A stretch of DNA of 64,000 nt from Candidatus Yanofskybacteria bacterium CG10_big_fil_rev_8_21_14_0_10_36_16 (GCA_002794035.1 PCXQ01000006.1:24533-88532); one strand, 5' to 3'; positions 4,728 through 24,708 are shown, counted from the stretch's first letter. Numbers and translations are program-made. Notes: generated by a model from the sequence alone, not told the origin.

Positions 4728-7421
4728 GTGAAATTTAAAATAGCAAAAATATTTTCTTATGATAATTTTCCCTTTTCAAGGGCGGGGTTCACAATCTTGG
4801 AAACTCTTATTGCTGCTGCACTATTTGTTATCATTGGCGGAGGTATATATTTAGCCTACTCAAATATACTTGAAATAATCACTAGGGGACGGCTTGATGC
4901 TGAAGCCGCTTTTATTTTGGAAAAAGAAATAGAAATAGTAAGGAACATGTCTTATGAAAATATTGGAACCACAACAGGAGCACCATTTGGCAAATTAAAA
5001 AGTGAAAAAACTGTAATAGCAGGTAATATACCTTTTGTTTTAAGAACTACTGTCAGAAACATAGACCATATTTTTGACGGCAAATTAAAAGGCAAGAATA
5101 ATATAGCCAATCTAGATGTAGGTGCTCAAGTTGGAGAAGGAGGGTTAAGAATGGAAAACCAATCTAAAATAATAGGGGATGTGTTTTCAAACGGCGACAT
5201 AATTGGAACCGGTAATTCTAATATTACAGGGAGTGCATGGGCTGCAGGATCTAGCAAAATTGATACAGTCAATGTGGCTAATGATGTTCATGCAAATACT
5301 ATACTTAACAGCTTTGTGGGAAGAGATGCTTATTACAAAAACATTTCCAATACAACTGTAGTTGGTAATTTGTTTTCTAATGTCCCGGATATTGAACCCC
5401 AAGAGCTTCCAATATCACCCCAACAACTGGCTGAATGGAAAACACTCGCTGCTGAAGGAGGCACTATCCCGACCCAAACCATAAGCGGATCCAATATTGT
5501 TCCTCTTGGACCAATTAAGATAAACGGAAATCTTACCATAAGAAATTCCGGACGCTTAATAATAACAGGGGTAATCTGGGTCACAGGAGATATTCTTATG
5601 CAAAATGATGCGGTAATTGAGATCGATCCGTCATTTGGAATGTTAAGCGGTCTGATAATCACAGACGGCAGTGTAATGATAAGAAATGAATCTGCCATAT
5701 GCGGGTCTGAGGGTTATAACACTTCAACCCAGACATGTAACCCGCCTGACTCAAGCTTTGTTTTCATAGTTTCAACAAAAGAAACCCTTGAAGATCCGGC
5801 TATAACAATAAATAACGCATCTGACTTAAGAACTCTTGTACATGCCAACAACGGAACAATAAATTTAAAAAATGCTATCCAACTAGTTAATGCTACGGGT
5901 TATTCAATTTTATTAGAAAACACCGCGTCAGTTATATATGACGAGGATTTGGATGATGTAGAATTTGGTTTTGGATCATTGGCATCAGTCCAAGAAGATC
6001 TGGCGCCAGGGGACTACAAACTGGTGGAAATTGAAATAAGCTGTCCTGAATGCACACTACCATTCACACCCAAAAAAGTTACCGCCACCGTAGCTCCACA
6101 GGGCCTTGAAACAGTAAGTAGAAATGGATCATTGTTTATTAATGCAATTGATGCATCGGGTGACTCCACAGCAAATGCTACTGTGCATGTTGTTAATAAT
6201 TCTGCCAATCCTCCAATTGACATCACTGATGTAACCGGCTCTGATGGCAAACTCCAGATCATTGATGTAGCCACAGGATCTTTTACATATGAAATTATTG
6301 TTTCTAAAGCAGGATATTCCACCGAACAAACATATCTGCCAGGGGAACCATCGAACCCCAATCCTGTTAAACCTCATGCAACGGTAGCAGAACAAGACGT
6401 AACTGAAATTACTTTCGTCATAGACAGAACTAGCACCATGAACCTAACCACAAGCGATTACATATGTTCTCCTGTGGCTGACATTAATTTCCTACAGGAA
6501 GGAAGCAAGCTCATAGGCCAAAGCCCAGATGTATTAAAATATTCTGAGAACCTTTCAACAGACACGAACGGAAATTACACAAACAACTCACTGGAATGGG
6601 ATACATACAATTTATCTCTAACTGATTCCGGATTTGACCTGGCTGGAACTGATATTCTTATGCCTTTGGTTATTAACCCAAACACCAACAGAAATATCAC
6701 CTGGACAGTAAAGCCCAAATTTTCTAATTCACTTCTCGCTGTAGCAAGAGACACAAACGGAAATTTTGTAAACGATGCCGAGGTTACAGTATCAGGCCCA
6801 GAAACCAAATCTGCTTTTACTGGTCTGGCATCCATATCTTATACTGACTGGTCGGGGGGCAATTATGACTCTCAAAGCGGAGGAATCGCAACAACGCCTG
6901 CGGGACAGCTAACCTTGGTTGATTTAGGAGGAAACAAATATGCTTCAAACAGTGAGGAGTGGTTAATTTCCAACACTATTGATTTTGGAACATCAACAAT
7001 ATTTTATGGAAAAATTGATTGGGACCCCAAAAACCAGCCAGCTCAAACTGGAGCAAATAGCTTAAAATTCCAAATAGCAGCAAACAACGATAACAACACC
7101 TGGAATTTTGTAGGACCTGATGGTTCCTCAAACACTTATTACACGACCGCAAAAACCGATATTTACAGTCAGCATGATGGGAATAGATATCTAAGATATA
7201 AGGCATATCTACAAACAGTAGACCAAGGGTTCACCCCATTATTAGATAAGATAATCATAGAGTTTAACTCAAGCTGTGTTCCTGAAGGGCAAGCCCTTCT
7301 AAACAATTTACCGAATGGATCATACAACATAACAATAGATCACCCGGGTTATAAAACATACAATGACAACATAAATATAAACAGCGAGTGGCAAGAATAT
7401 AGAGCCATTTTGGTTCCATAA
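4728..7421 (+). CDS. Giant (897 aa) pilin-like protein: class III signal peptide, N-terminal pilin helix, large beta-rich adhesin-like body
   Basis: GTG start. Leader MKFKIAKIFSYDNFPFSRAG|FTILETLIAAALFVII has G at -1, F at +1 and E at +5 (prepilin peptidase site). Body contains beta-helix-like G/N/S-rich repeats and carboxypeptidase-regulatory-like segments (GSLFINAIDASGDSTANATVHVVN...KAGYSTEQTY; ITIDHPGYKTYN). Confidence 0.7.
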   Translation: MKFKIAKIFSYDNFPFSRAGFTILETLIAAALFVIIGGGIYLAYSNILEIITRGRLDAEAAFILEKEIEIVRNMSYENIGTTTGAPFGKLKSEKTVIAGNIPFVLRTTVRNIDHIFDGKLKGKNNIANLDVGAQVGEGGLRMENQSKIIGDVFSNGDIIGTGNSNITGSAWAAGSSKIDTVNVANDVHANTILNSFVGRDAYYKNISNTTVVGNLFSNVPDIEPQELPISPQQLAEWKTLAAEGGTIPTQTISGSNIVPLGPIKINGNLTIRNSGRLIITGVIWVTGDILMQNDAVIEIDPSFGMLSGLIITDGSVMIRNESAICGSEGYNTSTQTCNPPDSSFVFIVSTKETLEDPAITINNASDLRTLVHANNGTINLKNAIQLVNATGYSILLENTASVIYDEDLDDVEFGFGSLASVQEDLAPGDYKLVEIEISCPECTLPFTPKKVTATVAPQGLETVSRNGSLFINAIDASGDSTANATVHVVNNSANPPIDITDVTGSDGKLQIIDVATGSFTYEIIVSKAGYSTEQTYLPGEPSNPNPVKPHATVAEQDVTEITFVIDRTSTMNLTTSDYICSPVADINFLQEGSKLIGQSPDVLKYSENLSTDTNGNYTNNSLEWDTYNLSLTDSGFDLAGTDILMPLVINPNTNRNITWTVKPKFSNSLLAVARDTNGNFVNDAEVTVSGPETKSAFTGLASISYTDWSGGNYDSQSGGIATTPAGQLTLVDLGGNKYASNSEEWLISNTIDFGTSTIFYGKIDWDPKNQPAQTGANSLKFQIAANNDNNTWNFVGPDGSSNTYYTTAKTDIYSQHDGNRYLRYKAYLQTVDQGFTPLLDKIIIEFNSSCVPEGQALLNNLPNGSYNITIDHPGYKTYNDNININSEWQEYRAILVP

Positions 7422-7432
7422 TAAACAAAACC

Positions 7433-7567
7433 ATGAATCTTCATAAAGTTTTAAAAAAATTACTTAGCAATATATCTCCCTCTTCAAGGGCGGGGTTTAC
7501 CCCGCTCTTGAAGATGGATGCGCCTTTTTATCTAATATTTATCAGTAATCACCCTGTTAGCTCATGA
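7433..7567 (+). pseudogene. Truncated duplicate of a pilin 5-prime end (44-codon ORF MNLHKVLKKLLSNISPSSRAGFTPLLK...); its TGA stop overlaps the ATG of the next pilin gene (ATGA)
   Basis: Nucleotides 7433-7500 nearly repeat 7564-7632. It encodes the same leader as the downstream pilin, then diverges. An embedded hairpin tcttcaagggcgggg-ttta-ccccgctcttgaaga is present. Confidence 0.45.
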
Positions 7568-8199
7568 ATCTTCTTAAAGTTTTAAAAAAAATACTTAGCA
7601 ATATATCTCCCTCTTCAAGGGCGGGGTTTACATTAATAGAAATAGTAATCGGATTGGCCATAATGTCTATTATAGTTATTTTAATCGGGTCTTTTGGGCT
7701 TGATATTTTAAGCTCTCAAACATCATTTAGTAGAACACTTGAAATACAAAGCGAAATAAATCAAACATTCAAAGAAATTATACCCGAAATTCGCTCAATG
7801 GAAGAATCAGAAAATGGAGCTTACCCAATTATTTCGGCATCATCGGATTCATTTGAATTTTATAGTGATGTGGATAGCAACGGAACAGTAGACAAAGTAA
7901 GATATTTTGTTGATGGAAGTGAGATGAAAAGAGGAACAACAAAACCCTCAGGCAACCCGCCTGTTTATGATCCGTCTGATGAAAAAATTAAAAGATTAAT
8001 TTCTGATTTAACTTTAACATCAGCGGGCATGTTTAAATATTACGATAAAAATTTCACGGGATCCGAAAACTCATTGGCAGTTCCCGTAAGCATACCGGCA
8101 ATAAGATTAATCAGAATTGAAGCAATAGTTGACCCCAAAATACCGGGCTCATCAAATTTTGTTTCATCAATGCAGGCAACGCCCCGTAATTTACGCTAA
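7564..8199 (+). CDS. Minor pilin / pseudopilin (prepilin-type N-terminus)
   Basis: Leader MNLLKVLKKILSNISPSSRAG|FTLIEIVIGLAIMSIIVIL with F at +1 and E at +5; 211 aa. Confidence 0.7.
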   Translation: MNLLKVLKKILSNISPSSRAGFTLIEIVIGLAIMSIIVILIGSFGLDILSSQTSFSRTLEIQSEINQTFKEIIPEIRSMEESENGAYPIISASSDSFEFYSDVDSNGTVDKVRYFVDGSEMKRGTTKPSGNPPVYDPSDEKIKRLISDLTLTSAGMFKYYDKNFTGSENSLAVPVSIPAIRLIRIEAIVDPKIPGSSNFVSSMQATPRNLR

Positions 8200-12196: not shown

Positions 12197-12710
12197 ATGT
12201 TTAAACAAAAAGTATTAAAAATTGTGTCTAATATTCCCAGGGGTCAAACCTTGAGTTATAAAGATGTTGCCCGCCTTGCCGGTTCACCCAACGCCTATAG
12301 AGCAGTCGGCAGCATACTGAACAAAAACTATAATAGGGGGTGCAGAATACTAATTATTATCGCTTGAGAAGTCCAAAAACGAAATGATTTCGAGGCGCGA
12401 TGACGAAGATGTAGATTCTACATCAAGGAGGAGTAACAAAAAAAATCATTCATTTTTGGACTTCCCTATGGGCGGGCTGATTTTAACCTTATTCTTTGTT
12501 GTTCGTCATTCATGTACCATCAAGTACACATCATTCCTCATGCCTCGAATAAGATTAAAATCAGCTACGCTCAAATGATAATAATTAGTATTCCGCACCC
12601 CCAACATACCCTGTCATCGTGTAATTAAATCAAATGGCATGCTTGGCGGTTACAACAAAGGCCTCGCACTAAAAACAGAAACTCTAAAAAAAGAAGGATA
12701 CATAAAATAG
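12197..12710 (+). pseudogene. MGMT/alkyltransferase-like gene (DNA-binding domain with PCHRV active site) split by a 268-bp inserted element
   Basis: Upstream part ...YKDVARLAGSPNAYRAVGSILNKNYN. After the insert the frame resumes NIPCHRVIKSNGMLGGYNKGLALKTETLKKEGYIK*. Removing 12335-12602 restores one continuous ~88-aa ORF. Confidence 0.65.
12335..12602. mobile_element. MITE-like insertion (268 bp) with 26/27-bp terminal inverted repeats and nested internal inverted repeats
   Basis: Left end AGGGGGTGCAGAATACTAATTATTATC; right end GATAATAATTAGTATTCCGCACCCCC (1 mismatch). Internal inverted repeats gaagtccaaaaa/tttttggacttc and ttcgaggc/gcctcgaa. No transposase ORF. Confidence 0.6.
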
Positions 12711-12846
12711 ATATTTTTTGCTTCTTATAAGCCCCAAAATAAAGCAATAGGGGGTTGACAATCTGCCAATAAAATGCTAAGAATATACTATAGAACCTCA
12801 TCTTCGGATAAGGTTTTTGTTTTTTAAAAAATAAATAAGGGGGAGA

Positions 12847-14668: not shown

Positions 14669-16165
14669 ATGAGAAAGCATCGGGAGATCAAAATCGCTGT
14701 TGTGGCTTTGGCCATATTAGCTGTTGTAGTATTTTTTGGTCGCGCATGTTCTTGGACATTAGATAAGTCTGAGTCAGAAAATACAACCTTAAATAATCAG
14801 GAAGAAACGCGAATTTCTTCAATGGAAGCAACGATAAAGAGTCTTGATGAGGAAAGGGCGAAATTAATTATTGAATTAAATCAGGAAAAAAATCGTACCA
14901 AATGCGGTAACAAACCCTGTGATGGAAGATGTTATGGCGTTCAAAGAGGCGATAATCTATCGTCCATCGCCCTTCGTTTTTACGGCAAAGTGTCTGCACT
15001 TAAAAAAATTGCTGAAGTTAATGGAATTAAAAACTCTGATGAGATTTTTGCTGAGTCATGCATCTGTCTGCCGGCTGAAGTTGAAGGAAGTAAACTAAAT
15101 GACAAAAACACAAAAAAGAAAGCAACTAGAGTCGGCCACGCAAAAACTGATCGGCCTTATTGGAGCTTGATGTATCCCACAATACCGACTCCTATTGTGG
15201 TTGTAGAATCTCCGAAACAACTTGCTGTGGCAAAACTGCCTAGGGTTGAAACAAAAGTTATTGAAAATAAACCCGTTGAAGAAGTTGGCCAAGCACCCAG
15301 CATTAGACCGGGTTTGCTAATGGAACAAAAAGCTCAAACAGCCTTAGCATTAATGCATGCGTTGCCACCTAAACCAAGCACACCCCAAGAACAGCCAGCA
15401 AAAACTGAGGGGACGCAAAAACCAAAGACAAATCCTCCTCTTGTTCTTCCAGGAAGCGCTTGGAATTCAAGCGGTAACTTATCACCTGTTGAAGAAGGCA
15501 ATTTTCAAAATTATTCTTATGTAGAACAAGGAATAACAGTTTGGAGAAACAATAAGTGGTCTCTGGTTCCTTATGTTTCAGTTTCAAACTCTGTAGATAC
15601 AAAGGGTTATAGCTGGAATAACAGAATCACTGGTCAGTTGGGAACCAAGATGGTAAAAAGTTTTGGCAACGGACTGGTTCAATTCGGTGGCGGATACATG
15701 CACGAAAATCGACGTGTCTCCGATCAAAATGAAGGTCAAGCTTTTGGCTTCGGGAGTTACTGGTTTGGATGGGATACACCAAGCTCCAATAAGGCCGAAG
15801 GGCTTTTCTCTGCATTTCCCGGTTCAAGCTGGGGAATGATAGGGAACACTTCTCCCGCTGAAGAAAATAATATTATTGGCACTGTTTATTTACAGCAGGG
15901 CGTTACCTTGGCAAAAATTAATCGAGTATCATTAATACCTTTTGTTGAAAACACCGTCAGTTTTGACACTAAAGATTACGCATGGAACAACAGAAACACA
16001 TGGGGAGCAGGCATCAAAGCATCTGTTCCTGTAAAATCCGGAATAGTTGAAATTGGGGCTAAACACTTAGATGAATATCGCTGGCAAGTTGGAAAACGTG
16101 CCAGTGGAGTAACAGGTTTTGTTAATCTGTGGTTTGGTTGGAATCCACCCTGGAAAAATCAATAA
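14669..16165 (+). CDS. LysM-domain protein with N-terminal TM/signal, Pro/Thr-rich linker and an internally duplicated ~110-aa C-terminal domain
   Basis: RBS AAGGAGGAAACACC-ATG. LysM: YGVQRGDNLSSIALRFYGKVSALKKIAEVNGI. Two repeats share ...NNR(I/N)TG..G.K..V.....V..G..H..E.R......A.G.TGF.N.WFGW. Confidence 0.7.
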   Translation: MRKHREIKIAVVALAILAVVVFFGRACSWTLDKSESENTTLNNQEETRISSMEATIKSLDEERAKLIIELNQEKNRTKCGNKPCDGRCYGVQRGDNLSSIALRFYGKVSALKKIAEVNGIKNSDEIFAESCICLPAEVEGSKLNDKNTKKKATRVGHAKTDRPYWSLMYPTIPTPIVVVESPKQLAVAKLPRVETKVIENKPVEEVGQAPSIRPGLLMEQKAQTALALMHALPPKPSTPQEQPAKTEGTQKPKTNPPLVLPGSAWNSSGNLSPVEEGNFQNYSYVEQGITVWRNNKWSLVPYVSVSNSVDTKGYSWNNRITGQLGTKMVKSFGNGLVQFGGGYMHENRRVSDQNEGQAFGFGSYWFGWDTPSSNKAEGLFSAFPGSSWGMIGNTSPAEENNIIGTVYLQQGVTLAKINRVSLIPFVENTVSFDTKDYAWNNRNTWGAGIKASVPVKSGIVEIGAKHLDEYRWQVGKRASGVTGFVNLWFGWNPPWKNQ

Positions 16166-18036: not shown

Positions 18037-18170
18037 CTCAAAATCCAAAATCCAAAATCCAAAATCCAAACCAATTTTTAATTTCAAAATCCAAATTTTT
18101 GAACAACAATTTAAAATTTTTGGATTTTAGATTTAGTTTGATTTTTGAGTTTTGGGTTTTGGATTTTTTA
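18037..18170. repeat. (AAAATCC)n tandem repeat with an inverted partner, forming a long imperfect AT-rich dyad upstream of the histidine kinase gene
   Basis: caaaatccaaaatccaaaatccaaaatccaaacc at 18039-18072; inverted copy ttttgagttttgggttttggatttttt at 18136-18168. Confidence 0.6.
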
Positions 18171-18192: not shown

Positions 18193-19962
18193 ATGGGTAA
18201 CATTATAATAATAATCTTGGGTATTTTCGGCTTGTTTGTCGGTTTTTTGTCTTACCTTAAAAGCAGAGAACTTAAAACAAAGCTTCAAACCCACATCTCG
18301 CTTGATACAGCAAGAGAAGAGGAGCTCAGCCAAAGAGTTTTTGAGCTATCCATATTAAAAGAGCTAGGAGAACGAGTAGGTTATTCTTTGGACGTCCAAA
18401 AAATTGTGGATGTAATTACTGGCTCCTTGCACCAATTTATAGAGTACAGCGCGGTATCATATATGTTTCTTGAGCCGGAAAAGATTGTATTTAAAATTCA
18501 TCTTGAGAAATCAGTGGACAGAAAATTCATTGATAATGTACGCGACAGAATGTTGCAGTCCTTATCGGCATTAATGAACAAGGAATTCGACAAAAGCCAA
18601 GTTGAAGAGTTTCTTTCAGGCGCCATACTTGTAGAAGATTTAAAACAACCAGTAAGGTCATTTTTCAATATTCCTATAGTAATCGCCAACAAAGTCATGG
18701 GAATATTAACTATCGCCCATACGGAAATAGGACTATACAAAGAAAAAGAAATGAGCATGCTTTATCGCATAATGCAGCAAGCATCAAGTGCTGTAACTCG
18801 TTTGCAAGAAGTAGTTGAAATAGAACAAAGGAAATTAAACTCAATGGTTGAAAGCATGACAGAGGGGGTTATTATGACCGACAAAGATTACAGAATCTTG
18901 GTAGCTAATCCTGCAGCTAGATCCGCAGTTGGACTAGAACAAGAAAAAGAAGTAACAATTTTTGATTTCATTGATAAATTAGGGGATAAGCTAGACATAA
19001 AAAATAAACTTGAGGAAAGCATACGTTTAGACAAGGTTCTTGAAGTAGAAGAGTTGCTTATAAATGACAAATTTTTTCAAGTTTTTGTATCTCCGGTCAA
19101 AAGCAAACAGGGCATTGAGAAAGGCAAAATCCTCGGAGGCGTTGTTATATTCCATGACATAACAAATGAAAAAGAAGTTGAGAAATTAAGAGAAGACTTC
19201 ACTTCTATAATGGTTCACGAATTAAGAGCTCCTCTTGATGGAATAAAAAAGAGAGCCGAGGTACTTAAAGAAGGATTGGGTATGGCAAAAGACCAAGCAG
19301 GCAAAGACGAAATCATGTCTGTTATTTATCAAAATGCCTCCCACATGCTAGAATTGGTTAATGACCTTCTTGATGTAGCTAAAATTGAAGCAGGTAAATT
19401 TGAACTTCGTAGAGAACCTTCGAATATTAAACAGATAATGAAAGAAAGGGTCAACTTCTTCAAAATTCTAGCCGAAGATGCTAAAATTGACTTGAGTTTT
19501 CAAGCCGCAGAAAACGTACCCGACGATCTGAATTTTGACCCATTAAGAATAGAACAAGTTTTAAATAATCTTATTTCAAATGCAATAAAGTTTACTGATG
19601 CAGGCGGAAGAGTGGTCGTACAAGCATTGATTCATCAAAATGGAAACAACATATCAGAGGAAGCAATCAGCAGTGGCATTGAGTGGCTAATTGATCCAAA
19701 TGATCCCAAATTAAAAAATTATCCCGATTCTTTAATTGTTGCTGTTACCGATACGGGAATCGGATTATCAAAAGAAAACATAATCCAGCTTTTCAATAAG
19801 TTCAAACAACTCCAATCATCCGCAAAAAGGAAAGAAAAGAAAGGCACAGGTCTTGGTTTGGTCATAGCAAAAGGAATTGTTGAAAGCCACAATGGAGTCA
19901 TTGGGGTAGGTTCTGAGGAAGGAAAGGGGAGCACATTTTACTTTACAATACCTATCAATTAA
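18193..19962 (+). CDS. Sensor histidine kinase (TM, GAF-like, PAS-like, HisKA, HATPase_c)
   Basis: H-box MVHELRAPLDG; G-boxes TDTGIGLS and GTGLGLVIAKGIVESHNGVIGVGSEEGKGSTFYFTIP. Confidence 0.8.
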   Translation: MGNIIIIILGIFGLFVGFLSYLKSRELKTKLQTHISLDTAREEELSQRVFELSILKELGERVGYSLDVQKIVDVITGSLHQFIEYSAVSYMFLEPEKIVFKIHLEKSVDRKFIDNVRDRMLQSLSALMNKEFDKSQVEEFLSGAILVEDLKQPVRSFFNIPIVIANKVMGILTIAHTEIGLYKEKEMSMLYRIMQQASSAVTRLQEVVEIEQRKLNSMVESMTEGVIMTDKDYRILVANPAARSAVGLEQEKEVTIFDFIDKLGDKLDIKNKLEESIRLDKVLEVEELLINDKFFQVFVSPVKSKQGIEKGKILGGVVIFHDITNEKEVEKLREDFTSIMVHELRAPLDGIKKRAEVLKEGLGMAKDQAGKDEIMSVIYQNASHMLELVNDLLDVAKIEAGKFELRREPSNIKQIMKERVNFFKILAEDAKIDLSFQAAENVPDDLNFDPLRIEQVLNNLISNAIKFTDAGGRVVVQALIHQNGNNISEEAISSGIEWLIDPNDPKLKNYPDSLIVAVTDTGIGLSKENIIQLFNKFKQLQSSAKRKEKKGTGLGLVIAKGIVESHNGVIGVGSEEGKGSTFYFTIPIN

Positions 19963-21949: not shown

Positions 21950-22261
21950 GTTTATAATTCCCTCCTATTAATTACAAACTATGAAGCGCGAATTGCACTC
22001 TTAGTAACTAAATAGTGTATTTATTGCTAGTTTAGGAGTGCAGAGCCCAAATAATAAGAGTTTGGATTCTGTACTTTTATTATTATACCACCTTGAAATA
22101 CATAGGAAAATACGATATTATCAACATTAGAATTAATCGTTCTAAAAATATAAAAATTACCAATTGCCGGTGTAGTTCAACGGCTACCTGCCCGCCAATC
22201 GCCTGACGGCTCAAGCCAGATGGCAGGCGGGGAACGAAGGACTCATGCTACTCAATTTTTT

Positions 22262-24465: not shown

Positions 24466-24654
24466 CTTCAATAAATTAAAACGGCATAAATGCTGTTTTA
24501 ATTTGGTGCAATGTTTGAGAGTAAGGGGACTTGAACAGTCCCGCAAAGCGGGACAAGGTTCAGCTCAAATTTTTAACGCCCCGCTGTGTTTCGTAAACTC
24601 AACACAAAGCGGGACTAAATTTGAGGATTAAAGCCAAGCAGTTGGCTTTAATCG

Positions 24655-24708
24655 CCGTCGCTCCCGCTTCAATAAATTAAAACGGCATAAATGCTATTTT
24701 AATTTGGT
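24655..24708. repeat. 54-bp direct repeat of the tRNA-Asp 3-prime end plus downstream flank (second copy; first copy at 24454-24507)
   Basis: ccgtcgctcccgcttcaataaattaaaacggcataaatgct(g/a)ttttaatttggt appears twice, 53/54 identical, enclosing a 147-bp hairpin-rich segment. Confidence 0.7.

Follow-up and report, generated by a model that had tools for sequence, protein, structure and literature searches.

A 267-nt non-coding palindromic element (12336-12602), in which terminal inverted repeats and two inner hairpins form a Y-shaped fold, interrupts an MGMT gene of Candidatus Yanofskybacteria bacterium CG10_big_fil_rev_8_21_14_0_10_36_16, an ultra-small groundwater organism. With moderate confidence, we regard it as a REPIN- or MITE-like (foldback-like) non-autonomous mobile DNA palindrome of Parcubacteria/Paceibacteria-type bacteria of the Candidate Phyla Radiation (CPR) that inactivated this gene. 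The window in which it lies is the whole stretch of DNA analysed here, 64,000 nucleotides on one strand, and positions are counted from its first letter unless another contig is named. The element belongs to a low-copy family that was previously undescribed, with nothing like it in Rfam 15 or in the literature searched. From the unrelated contexts of the copies in four genomes, the two copies and one relic that probably share a single genome, and an orthologue of the gene that is uninterrupted, we infer that the element is mobile and reached the gene by insertion.

The interrupted MGMT gene

As the original prediction had stated, the open reading frame from the ATG at 12197 (+ strand) encodes MFKQKVLKIVSNIPRGQTLSYKDVARLAGSPNAYRAVGSILNKNYN, runs to ...AVGSILNKNYN and stops inside the repeat, where ten foreign codons precede the stop codon at 12365-12367. 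The 5' part of the gene (12197-12334, +) comprises codons 1-46, as given by the translation and by alignment to homologue residues 1-46. On the 3' side of the element, NIPCHRVIKSNG...GYIK carries on the MGMT domain up to a stop codon, and this 3' part (12600-12710, +; PNIPCHRVIKSNG...GYIK, stop 12708-12710) lacks a start codon, as none follows the in-frame stops at 12576-12584. Since the protein is truncated after the ten foreign codons, the gene as read is broken and constitutes a null allele, and its function was presumably lost. Neither the homologue search nor exact look-ups of the ORFs returned an MGMT product from the source organism. Translation of the 3' half on its own was considered and rejected, as it lacks a start codon; translational bypass was rejected as well, since landing on the Asn codon AAC would leave the loop two residues short.

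Removal of 268 nt, the length first proposed, restores the frame and the PCHR motif and gives an 81-aa product that matches Pfam PF01035 (DNA_binding_1) over positions 2-80 of 81 (E = 1e-27, 96.2 bits) and shares 69-73% identity with short MGMT-family proteins of Patescibacteria. The reading frame and the motif thus stood, but the length did not. With 268 nt removed the loop before PCHRV is one residue short; five residues separate NKN from PCHRV in 117 of 120 homologues, six in three and four in none, and the inserted DNA is therefore taken to be 265 nt (12335-12599, +). The extra loop residue ahead of I-P-C-H-R is Pro in 75 of the 117, and CCC at 12600-12602 serves both as the Pro-47 codon in the 3' frame and as the last three bases of the terminal helix. 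Removing these 265 nt restores NYN/PNIPCHRV and yields NKNYNPNIPCHRV, which scores 99.2 bits against PF01035 instead of 96.2 (profile positions 2-80 of 81) and so falls within the 93-104 bits of intact homologues (n = 9). The protein so rejoined is a full-length match to PF01035 with the active-site PCHRV, and all 25 invariant MGMT residues are kept across the two gene halves. The unit to be removed is asymmetric: its left boundary lies one base beyond the helix (A12335) and its right boundary three bases within it, whereas removal of the 267 nt bounded by the helix causes a frameshift of the gene. The predicted empty junction reads AAAAACTATAAT/CCCAACATACCC, also written as AACAAAAACTATAAT/CCCAACATACCCTGTCATCG, and joins AAT/CCC.

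Relatives agree with this delimitation. A locus in GCA_030698885.1 (L220/L008) is syntenic with the window over more than 15 kb, including T2SS and pilin genes, an fn3 protein, MGMT, a GT2 glycosyltransferase and a LysM protein; its MGMT gene is intact, and the orthologous site reads AAT TAT GAC/CTT GCC ATA CCA TGC. MGMT was uninterrupted at the best 80 GTDB loci. The claim that an insertion split a once-continuous gene is thus borne out by the PF01035 match and by these uninterrupted relatives. The MGMT neighbourhoods of the close homologues P0004, P0005 and P0044 were non-syntenic and carried no element. As to the window as a whole, the ORFs taken as genes all lie on the + strand up to 62.2 kb (the listed - strand ORFs overlap them), followed by two - strand genes at the end, and two separate type IV pilus/T2SS gene sets occupy 1.7-10.3 kb and 31-41 kb.

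The glycosyltransferase adjacent to the interrupted gene shares 100% identity with a protein of "Candidatus Yanofskybacteria bacterium CG10_big_fil_rev_8..." from Crystal Geyser. The same insertion occurs on contigs of two ENA assemblies, one JGI metagenome and one Logan assembly, all with 100% identity over the shared bases; the datasets concerned are SRR6240789 (Crystal Geyser), JGI 3300004210, ERZ27293400 and ERZ27293414. The contigs from these four datasets represent one clonal population and supply no independent allele, and no empty-site allele was found among them. No pair of empty and filled alleles at the same site within one species was seen, and the ends of the insert are thus set by the MGMT reading frame only. 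Within the element, the Logan assembly is broken between 12472, where one contig ends, and 12487, where the next begins; the first base of the JGI contig is 12457. These break points are those expected of k = 31 and k = 61 graphs at a 74-nt stretch (12443-12516) that is identical in the window copy and in a second copy on another contig (L228, below). Assemblies of the same population also fragment between 7.5 and 14.5 kb of the window, and a 69-nt direct repeat (7432-7500/7563-7631, 97% identical) surrounds the start of a pilin-like gene at 7564-8199.

Further copies and their genomic contexts

The first further copy was found by blastn of the element against the loci fetched for MGMT homologues, as a match of 221 nt in L008 (73% identity, E = 4e-25) that lies 1.7 kb downstream of the best MGMT homologue. 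The element has a single stop-free frame, of 74 codons, and an exhaustive HMMER search with this frame then revealed the family: the search returned seven "proteins", 46-81% identical, which are translated further copies, two of them traced to DNA and five known from translation only. In total, the family comprises four full DNA copies in four contexts (an ORF, an rRNA leader, a 5'UTR and a convergent spacer), five translated copies and one relic. The four full copies are 266-292 nt long, 70-88% identical and alignable over their whole length.

The copy in L220/L008 (292 nt; nhmmer 1e-99) sits downstream of a promoter-like site and ahead of the AAGGAGG that precedes the orthologous GT2 gene, and hence in the 5'UTR of that gene. 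Between MGMT and this copy, L008 3413-4786 (equal to L220 8167-9540) encodes a 457-aa protein with an unbroken run of about 40 prolines that has no counterpart in the window. The second copy, on L228, a 218-kb contig from the same ENA sample as the window, measures 266 nt, is 88% identical to the window copy and lies between a TTGACT-17-TAATAT promoter and the 16S rRNA gene (5547-7138 by Rfam). On that contig the 16S rRNA gene (1335 bits with Rfam) is followed by a SpoU methylase gene rather than by 23S within 5547-7488, which makes it a split rRNA operon, and extra AT-rich segments at about 5985-6035 and 6200-6262 are typical of CPR. The third, of 272 nt, lies on a JGI contig (L230; 181 kb, 42% GC), where it is flanked by an operon of small ORFs and by a convergent TrmB gene. 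About 900 nt of the same contig (7050-8000) are GC-rich, strongly self-complementary and mostly without a called gene, match no Rfam family at gathering score and could be an undescribed RNA gene.

Run over 741 kb, a covariance model of the four full copies gave no other full copy and one relic hit (18.7 bits, E ~8e-4). This relic is a 55-nt intergenic hairpin on the + strand of the window itself (22029-22083; GGAGTGCAGAGCCCAAA-TAATAAGA-GTTTGGATTCTGTACT), about 180 nt upstream of tRNA-Met. It corresponds to the outer 17 bp of the two terminal-stem arms, the interior being deleted. The element had been thought single-copy in the window; it is the only full copy there, but the stem-only relic accompanies it. 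The original prediction was to fall if there were no other copies and no empty-site allele anywhere and the flanks were never continuous in relatives; copies do exist at unrelated loci, and the syntenic orthologue is uninterrupted. Density is low: the window contig has one full copy in 74 kb, and L220 has one in 21 kb. The window and L228 copies very probably share one genome, since the contigs come from the same two ENA samples, agree in tetranucleotide composition (r = 0.97-0.98, against at most 0.91 for other CPR loci) and break at the shared 74 nt. The source genome thus likely holds about two copies and the relic.

Other searches added nothing to the family. A concatenated six-frame peptide query against an index of 5.8 billion proteins found nothing, exact look-ups of the element ORFs returned no record, and blastn of the element against plasmids and phages, as well as searches of IMG/VR with inner-stem and conserved-block patterns, gave chance matches only. 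Nothing relevant on a MITE, intron or structured RNA of this kind in CPR was found in the literature search.

Palindromic architecture, conserved fold and age

The left end of the element, GGGGGTGCAGAATACTAATTATTATC (12336-12361), differs by one base from the reverse complement at 12577-12602, and this pattern occurs at only two sites in the 64 kb, where none is expected by chance. The 26-bp terminal inverted repeats first described are thus confirmed, and they extend to 33 nt (12336-12368/12570-12602; 30 of 33 positions, or 91%, complementary, with three mismatches that are all transitions). These arms form the terminal stem P1, which has 31 pairs in the four-copy alignment, 11 of them compensatory. 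Folding energy was -103.8 kcal/mol on the + strand (z = -10.6) and -118.2 on the - strand (z = -12.1). Inside the stem, hairpin A (12368-12464) has a stem at 12368-12390/12443-12464, an apical hairpin at 12408-12424 and two conserved purine boxes, GATGACGAA (12399-12407) and AAGGAGGAGT (12425-12434). The central junction (12465-12475; CCTATGGGCGG) contains a GGGCGGG block, unchanged among the four copies, for which 12565-12572 is a possible pairing partner. Hairpin B (12476-12565) has a stem at 12476-12494/12547-12565 with six covarying pairs, an apical hairpin at 12512-12529 and the boxes GTTGTTCGTCAT (12498-12509) and ATTCCTC (12533-12539). Stems A and B account for the nested internal repeats noted at the outset. 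Hairpins A and B have interiors that are imperfect reverse complements of each other (z = 3.2), and the unit is thus an inverted doublet of two hairpin modules. As to coding capacity, the element has stops in every frame but the 74-codon one; this frame is not kept between copies, where indels of 1-2 nt shift it, so that a real coding ORF was rejected and the earlier description of the element as non-coding holds.

Several other repeats were observed in the window. A 38-nt inverted repeat (15142-15179/15770-15807, 87% complementary, 590 nt apart) lies inside a 498-aa LysM-domain ORF (14669-16165) and could mark an invertible segment. A 32-nt palindromic hairpin, AAATTAAAACGGCATAAATGCTGTTTTAATTT, occurs twice, at 24473-24504 and 24674-24705, 200 nt apart and just after tRNA-Asp. 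Upstream of a histidine-kinase gene (18193-19962), AAAATCC heptamer repeats at 18040-18167 face their reverse complement (50-nt arms, 78% complementary).

The consensus fold of the four copies contains 94 pairs, with 96% of cells paired, and consists of a long closing stem, two long hairpins and small junction helices. Both sides had changed in 25 pairs, compared with 13.2 +/- 2.3 in column shuffles (0 of 500 reached this number), while controls with slid partners gave one to four. The covarying pairs fall in the terminal stem (11), stem B (6), stem A (3) and the apical hairpins (3), and near-invariant boxes occupy the loops: GA(T/C)GACGAA, AGGAGGAG, TTCGTC and TCCTC. A functional RNA made from one strand is expected to tolerate G.U but not A.C mismatches. 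In a strand-neutral set of pairs, 21 mismatches were G.U on the + strand and 26 were G.U on the - strand (G.T versus A.C), which is no bias, and the alifold consensus was equally good on both (-111 on +, -118 on -). This wobble symmetry points either to a constraint on DNA, which would form a cruciform or fold into hairpins when single-stranded, or to quasi-palindromes "repaired" by template switching, rather than to an RNA from one strand. Template-switch mutation in DNA palindromes can itself mimic compensatory change, and covariation alone is thus no proof of a selected structure.

These results bear on an unlikely alternative, namely that the element is a structured RNA module for processing, stability or leader function that was copied to transcribed places, the MGMT copy being an accident of its spread. 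Two of the four copies do lie between a promoter and a downstream gene (16S rRNA in L228, GT2 in L220), all four are sense, and the fold combines its 25 covarying pairs and conserved loop boxes with an SD-like AGGAGG and an anti-SD-like TCCTC that are able to pair. Long MITE hairpins are moreover known as RNase substrates (PMC3184786). Against such a module stand the lack of strand bias in the wobble pairs, a - strand that folds as well or better, and the failure of any Rfam 15 family to match the element even at E <= 10. The contexts are unrelated to one another (ORF, leader, 5'UTR, convergent spacer), a decayed relic exists, and 241 million metagenome records held no MGMT gene with a 250-280-nt insert at the same site (10 pattern hits, all intact genes).

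The window and L228 copies form a mosaic, with ~98% identity over ~160 nt of the right-hand interior and ~65% in the terminal arms, and the C.A mismatches of L228 fall exactly where a left part like L230 and L220 meets a right part like the window. To judge from this pattern, the mosaic looks like gene conversion between old paralogues. A recent insertion had been one of the two original readings, and the comparison does not show it to be recent, as the nearest known copy is only 88% identical. Were the copy in MGMT as old as these paralogues, undecayed gene halves would be unexpected for a pseudogene. Either the insertion is recent and its source was a copy not seen here whose arms are alike (P0245 translates to a near-identical terminal arm), or MGMT is still in use, for which the element would have to be removed precisely.

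We consider it quite unlikely that the palindrome is precisely removed, through HUH-type "peel-out" of single-stranded DNA or from mRNA, so that MGMT works while the module acts in transcripts at its other sites (16S leader, 5'UTR); a DNA peel-out could even respond to DNA damage. If true, this would be a seamless intervening element of a new kind, set within protein-coding genes of bacteria. Very unlikely is an intron-like or self-excising element, whose 265 nt would leave the mRNA, or the DNA in part of the population, to give functional MGMT. In its favour, the gene halves are undecayed though the element copies are old and diverged, and the terminal stem brings both junctions together. The insertion also falls precisely on a codon boundary, and joining the halves gives a product of consensus length. 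HUH-type elements (IS200/IS605) excise precisely and seamlessly, which we also count in favour of self-excision. On the other hand, the element matches no group I, group II or ribozyme family in Rfam. The RF00028 core, the U/G at the 5' splice site and the terminal G (omega) of group I introns were not seen, and the element ends in C under every in-frame boundary. GUGYG...AY ends and the domain V of group II introns, which exceed 400 nt, were likewise not seen in these 265 nt. Nor is there an archaeal-type bulge-helix-bulge with two 3-nt bulges and a 4-bp helix; the junctions lie at the base of a continuous helix and 3 bp inside it, and the host is a bacterium. With the 3' junction required 3 nt inside the helix, the cut would leave a 4-nt 5' overhang unlike that of RNase III, and an RNase III-type staggered cut was rejected. 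Replication slippage between direct repeats was rejected too, with only 0-1 nt of homology at the junctions. The other copies lie where splicing is not needed and show no strand bias. In the absence of an intron or ribozyme signature and of a strand bias, RNA splicing finds no support in the sequence.

Ends, mode of movement and related systems

The ends of the element bear on how it moved. No consistent direct repeat flanks the five copies (four full copies and the relic); AAA at L228 and TTA at the relic occur in AT-rich flanks only, and the reading frame of MGMT leaves no room for a target duplication. Duplications of 1, 2 (TA), 3, 4 and 5 bp, as well as a Tn3- or IS5-type end with its matching duplication, were considered and rejected from the sequence. 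The left flanks (TAAT, TTAA, GTAT, CCCT and AGTT) share no common word, and the terminal arms showed no similarity or complementarity to the flanks above shuffles, of the kind that would suggest a guide-like role. Promoter-like sequence was noted near several ends: TCGGCA-17-TATAAT (10 of 12 positions; 12306-12334) ends at the last base before the insertion, and a T/A-rich -10-like hexamer stands directly 5' of most other copies (TATTTA, GGTATT, TAGTTT). In the MGMT-GT2 spacer, AATAGGGGGTTGACAAT (12746-12762) abuts the -35 box of GT2 and shares 14 of 17 positions with the left junction AATAGGGGGTGCAGAAT; this may be due to chance or to the footprint of an earlier site, and the covariance model gives no hit there. 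The four full copies are all sense and run in the direction of the gene-rich strand. This strand has a positive GC skew (it is G-rich) in the window, L228 and L230, and it is the one exposed as lagging-strand template.

It is unlikely that the element is a classical MITE, an internally deleted IS moved by a DDE transposase that binds the 26-33-bp terminal repeats, with the MGMT copy a simple knock-out. It is small and non-coding, with long terminal repeats, a very stable fold and dispersed copies, all of which suits a MITE (cf. PMC3184786). The relic shows that internally deleted forms exist. The repeat core GGTGC(R)GAATA presumably resembles IS5-type ends, which we count for such an origin. 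Against it, none of the five copies shows a target duplication. The outermost bases differ among copies yet remain paired (GGGGGTGC/GCACCCCC, GGGAGCGC/GTGCTCCT, GGGGGAGC/GCTCCCCT, TAGAGTGC/GCACTCTG), unlike tips bound by a transposase, and the inner stems covary too. Excision of the 267 nt between the repeats shifts the MGMT frame, and excision of 268 nt leaves a loop length seen in none of the 120 homologues. No parent IS was found, and exact scans with 19-21-mers of the terminal repeat gave no hits in GTDB representatives, IMG/VR or JGI metagenome contigs, of which the last negative is weak because the collection lacks even the known 2-kb JGI contig. The original label of MITE fits only loosely: the element is small, non-coding, dispersed and bounded by terminal inverted repeats, but it has no target duplication, its tips covary, its three-way fold is conserved and its copy number is low.

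The reading that we prefer, a non-autonomous mobile palindrome, would work as follows. The doublet of inverted hairpin modules and the long terminal stem would let single-stranded DNA fold into a Y or clover, and a trans-acting enzyme most likely recognises this folded strand, as in the REPIN/RAYT and IS200/IS605 (HUH) systems. The element would have landed between codons 46 and 47 of the short MGMT gene, with GGG of the 5' AGGG tail of the inserted unit pairing with host CCC just 3' of the insertion. Such a single-strand mode is preferred over DDE cut-and-paste for three reasons: no target duplication was found, the covarying stems carry conserved loop boxes, and the inserted unit is asymmetric. 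Against this reading, there are far fewer copies than with REPINs or typical MITEs, and a REPIN is only a third to a quarter as long as the element. No transposase or recombinase domain was found in the window ORFs or in the gene tables of L220, L228 and L230.

First, the closest analogue is the REPIN, which is mobilised by RAYT tyrosine HUH transposases. REPINs are inverted doublets of hairpin units with an alternative clover fold, in which compensatory changes are common. On excision they form asymmetric intermediates whose 5' tail complements the 3' end; these point to pairing with the target, by a single-strand mechanism like that of IS200/IS608 (Bertels and Rainey, 2011, PMC3116915). Our element shares the non-coding inverted doublet, the choice between long hairpin and clover, the compensatory changes and the lack of target duplication, and its AGGG tail and host CCC, as deduced from the reading frame, reproduce the geometry of the REPIN 5' tail. 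It differs in size (266-292 nt versus ~70-110 nt), in having few copies per genome instead of hundreds, and in its CPR host; REPINs are extragenic, whereas this family has one copy in an ORF and one in an rRNA leader. A RAYT gene is usual near REPIN clusters, but none (Y1 HUH, PF01797) was seen in the window ORFs or loci gene tables, about 130 kb of element-bearing genomes. Second, bacterial MITEs (Correia/NEMIS, ERIC, RUP, Nezha) are often co-transcribed and sometimes lie in or are fused to ORFs (Delihas, 2011, PMC3184786). Small size (below ~500 bp), lack of coding capacity, terminal inverted repeats in all copies and very stable folds are shared with them; MITEs, in contrast, have target duplications (e.g., TA), and their termini are conserved and correspond to those of a parent IS, whereas the termini here are variable and covary. 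Third, PATEs, which derive from IS200/IS605, resemble the element in subterminal hairpins, lack of duplication and seamless insertion and excision, and their orientation is tied to the lagging-strand template, as the four copies here are co-oriented with the gene-rich strand. However, PATEs are without long terminal repeats and insert 3' of a fixed tetra- or pentanucleotide, whereas the left flanks here differ. Finally, Rickettsia palindromic elements (RPEs) are likewise mobile palindromes that occur within ORFs in a reduced genome. They keep the reading frame and become part of the translated protein; the present element carries stops in the MGMT frame.

To our knowledge, the mobile DNA of the CPR is almost undescribed. 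Such elements break assemblies (three contigs here) and hide genes from annotation, and the filled junction against the predicted empty one offers a concrete test case for precise excision. CPR genomes are tiny and gene-dense, and every insertion is thus costly. Nevertheless, a non-coding palindrome of ~270 nt persists in them at very low copy number, with a three-way fold kept by dozens of compensatory changes. The family lands in transcribed places, such as an rRNA leader and a DNA-repair gene, and exchanges sequence between its copies, and it would extend the REPIN/MITE theme to larger, rarer elements without a known enzyme.
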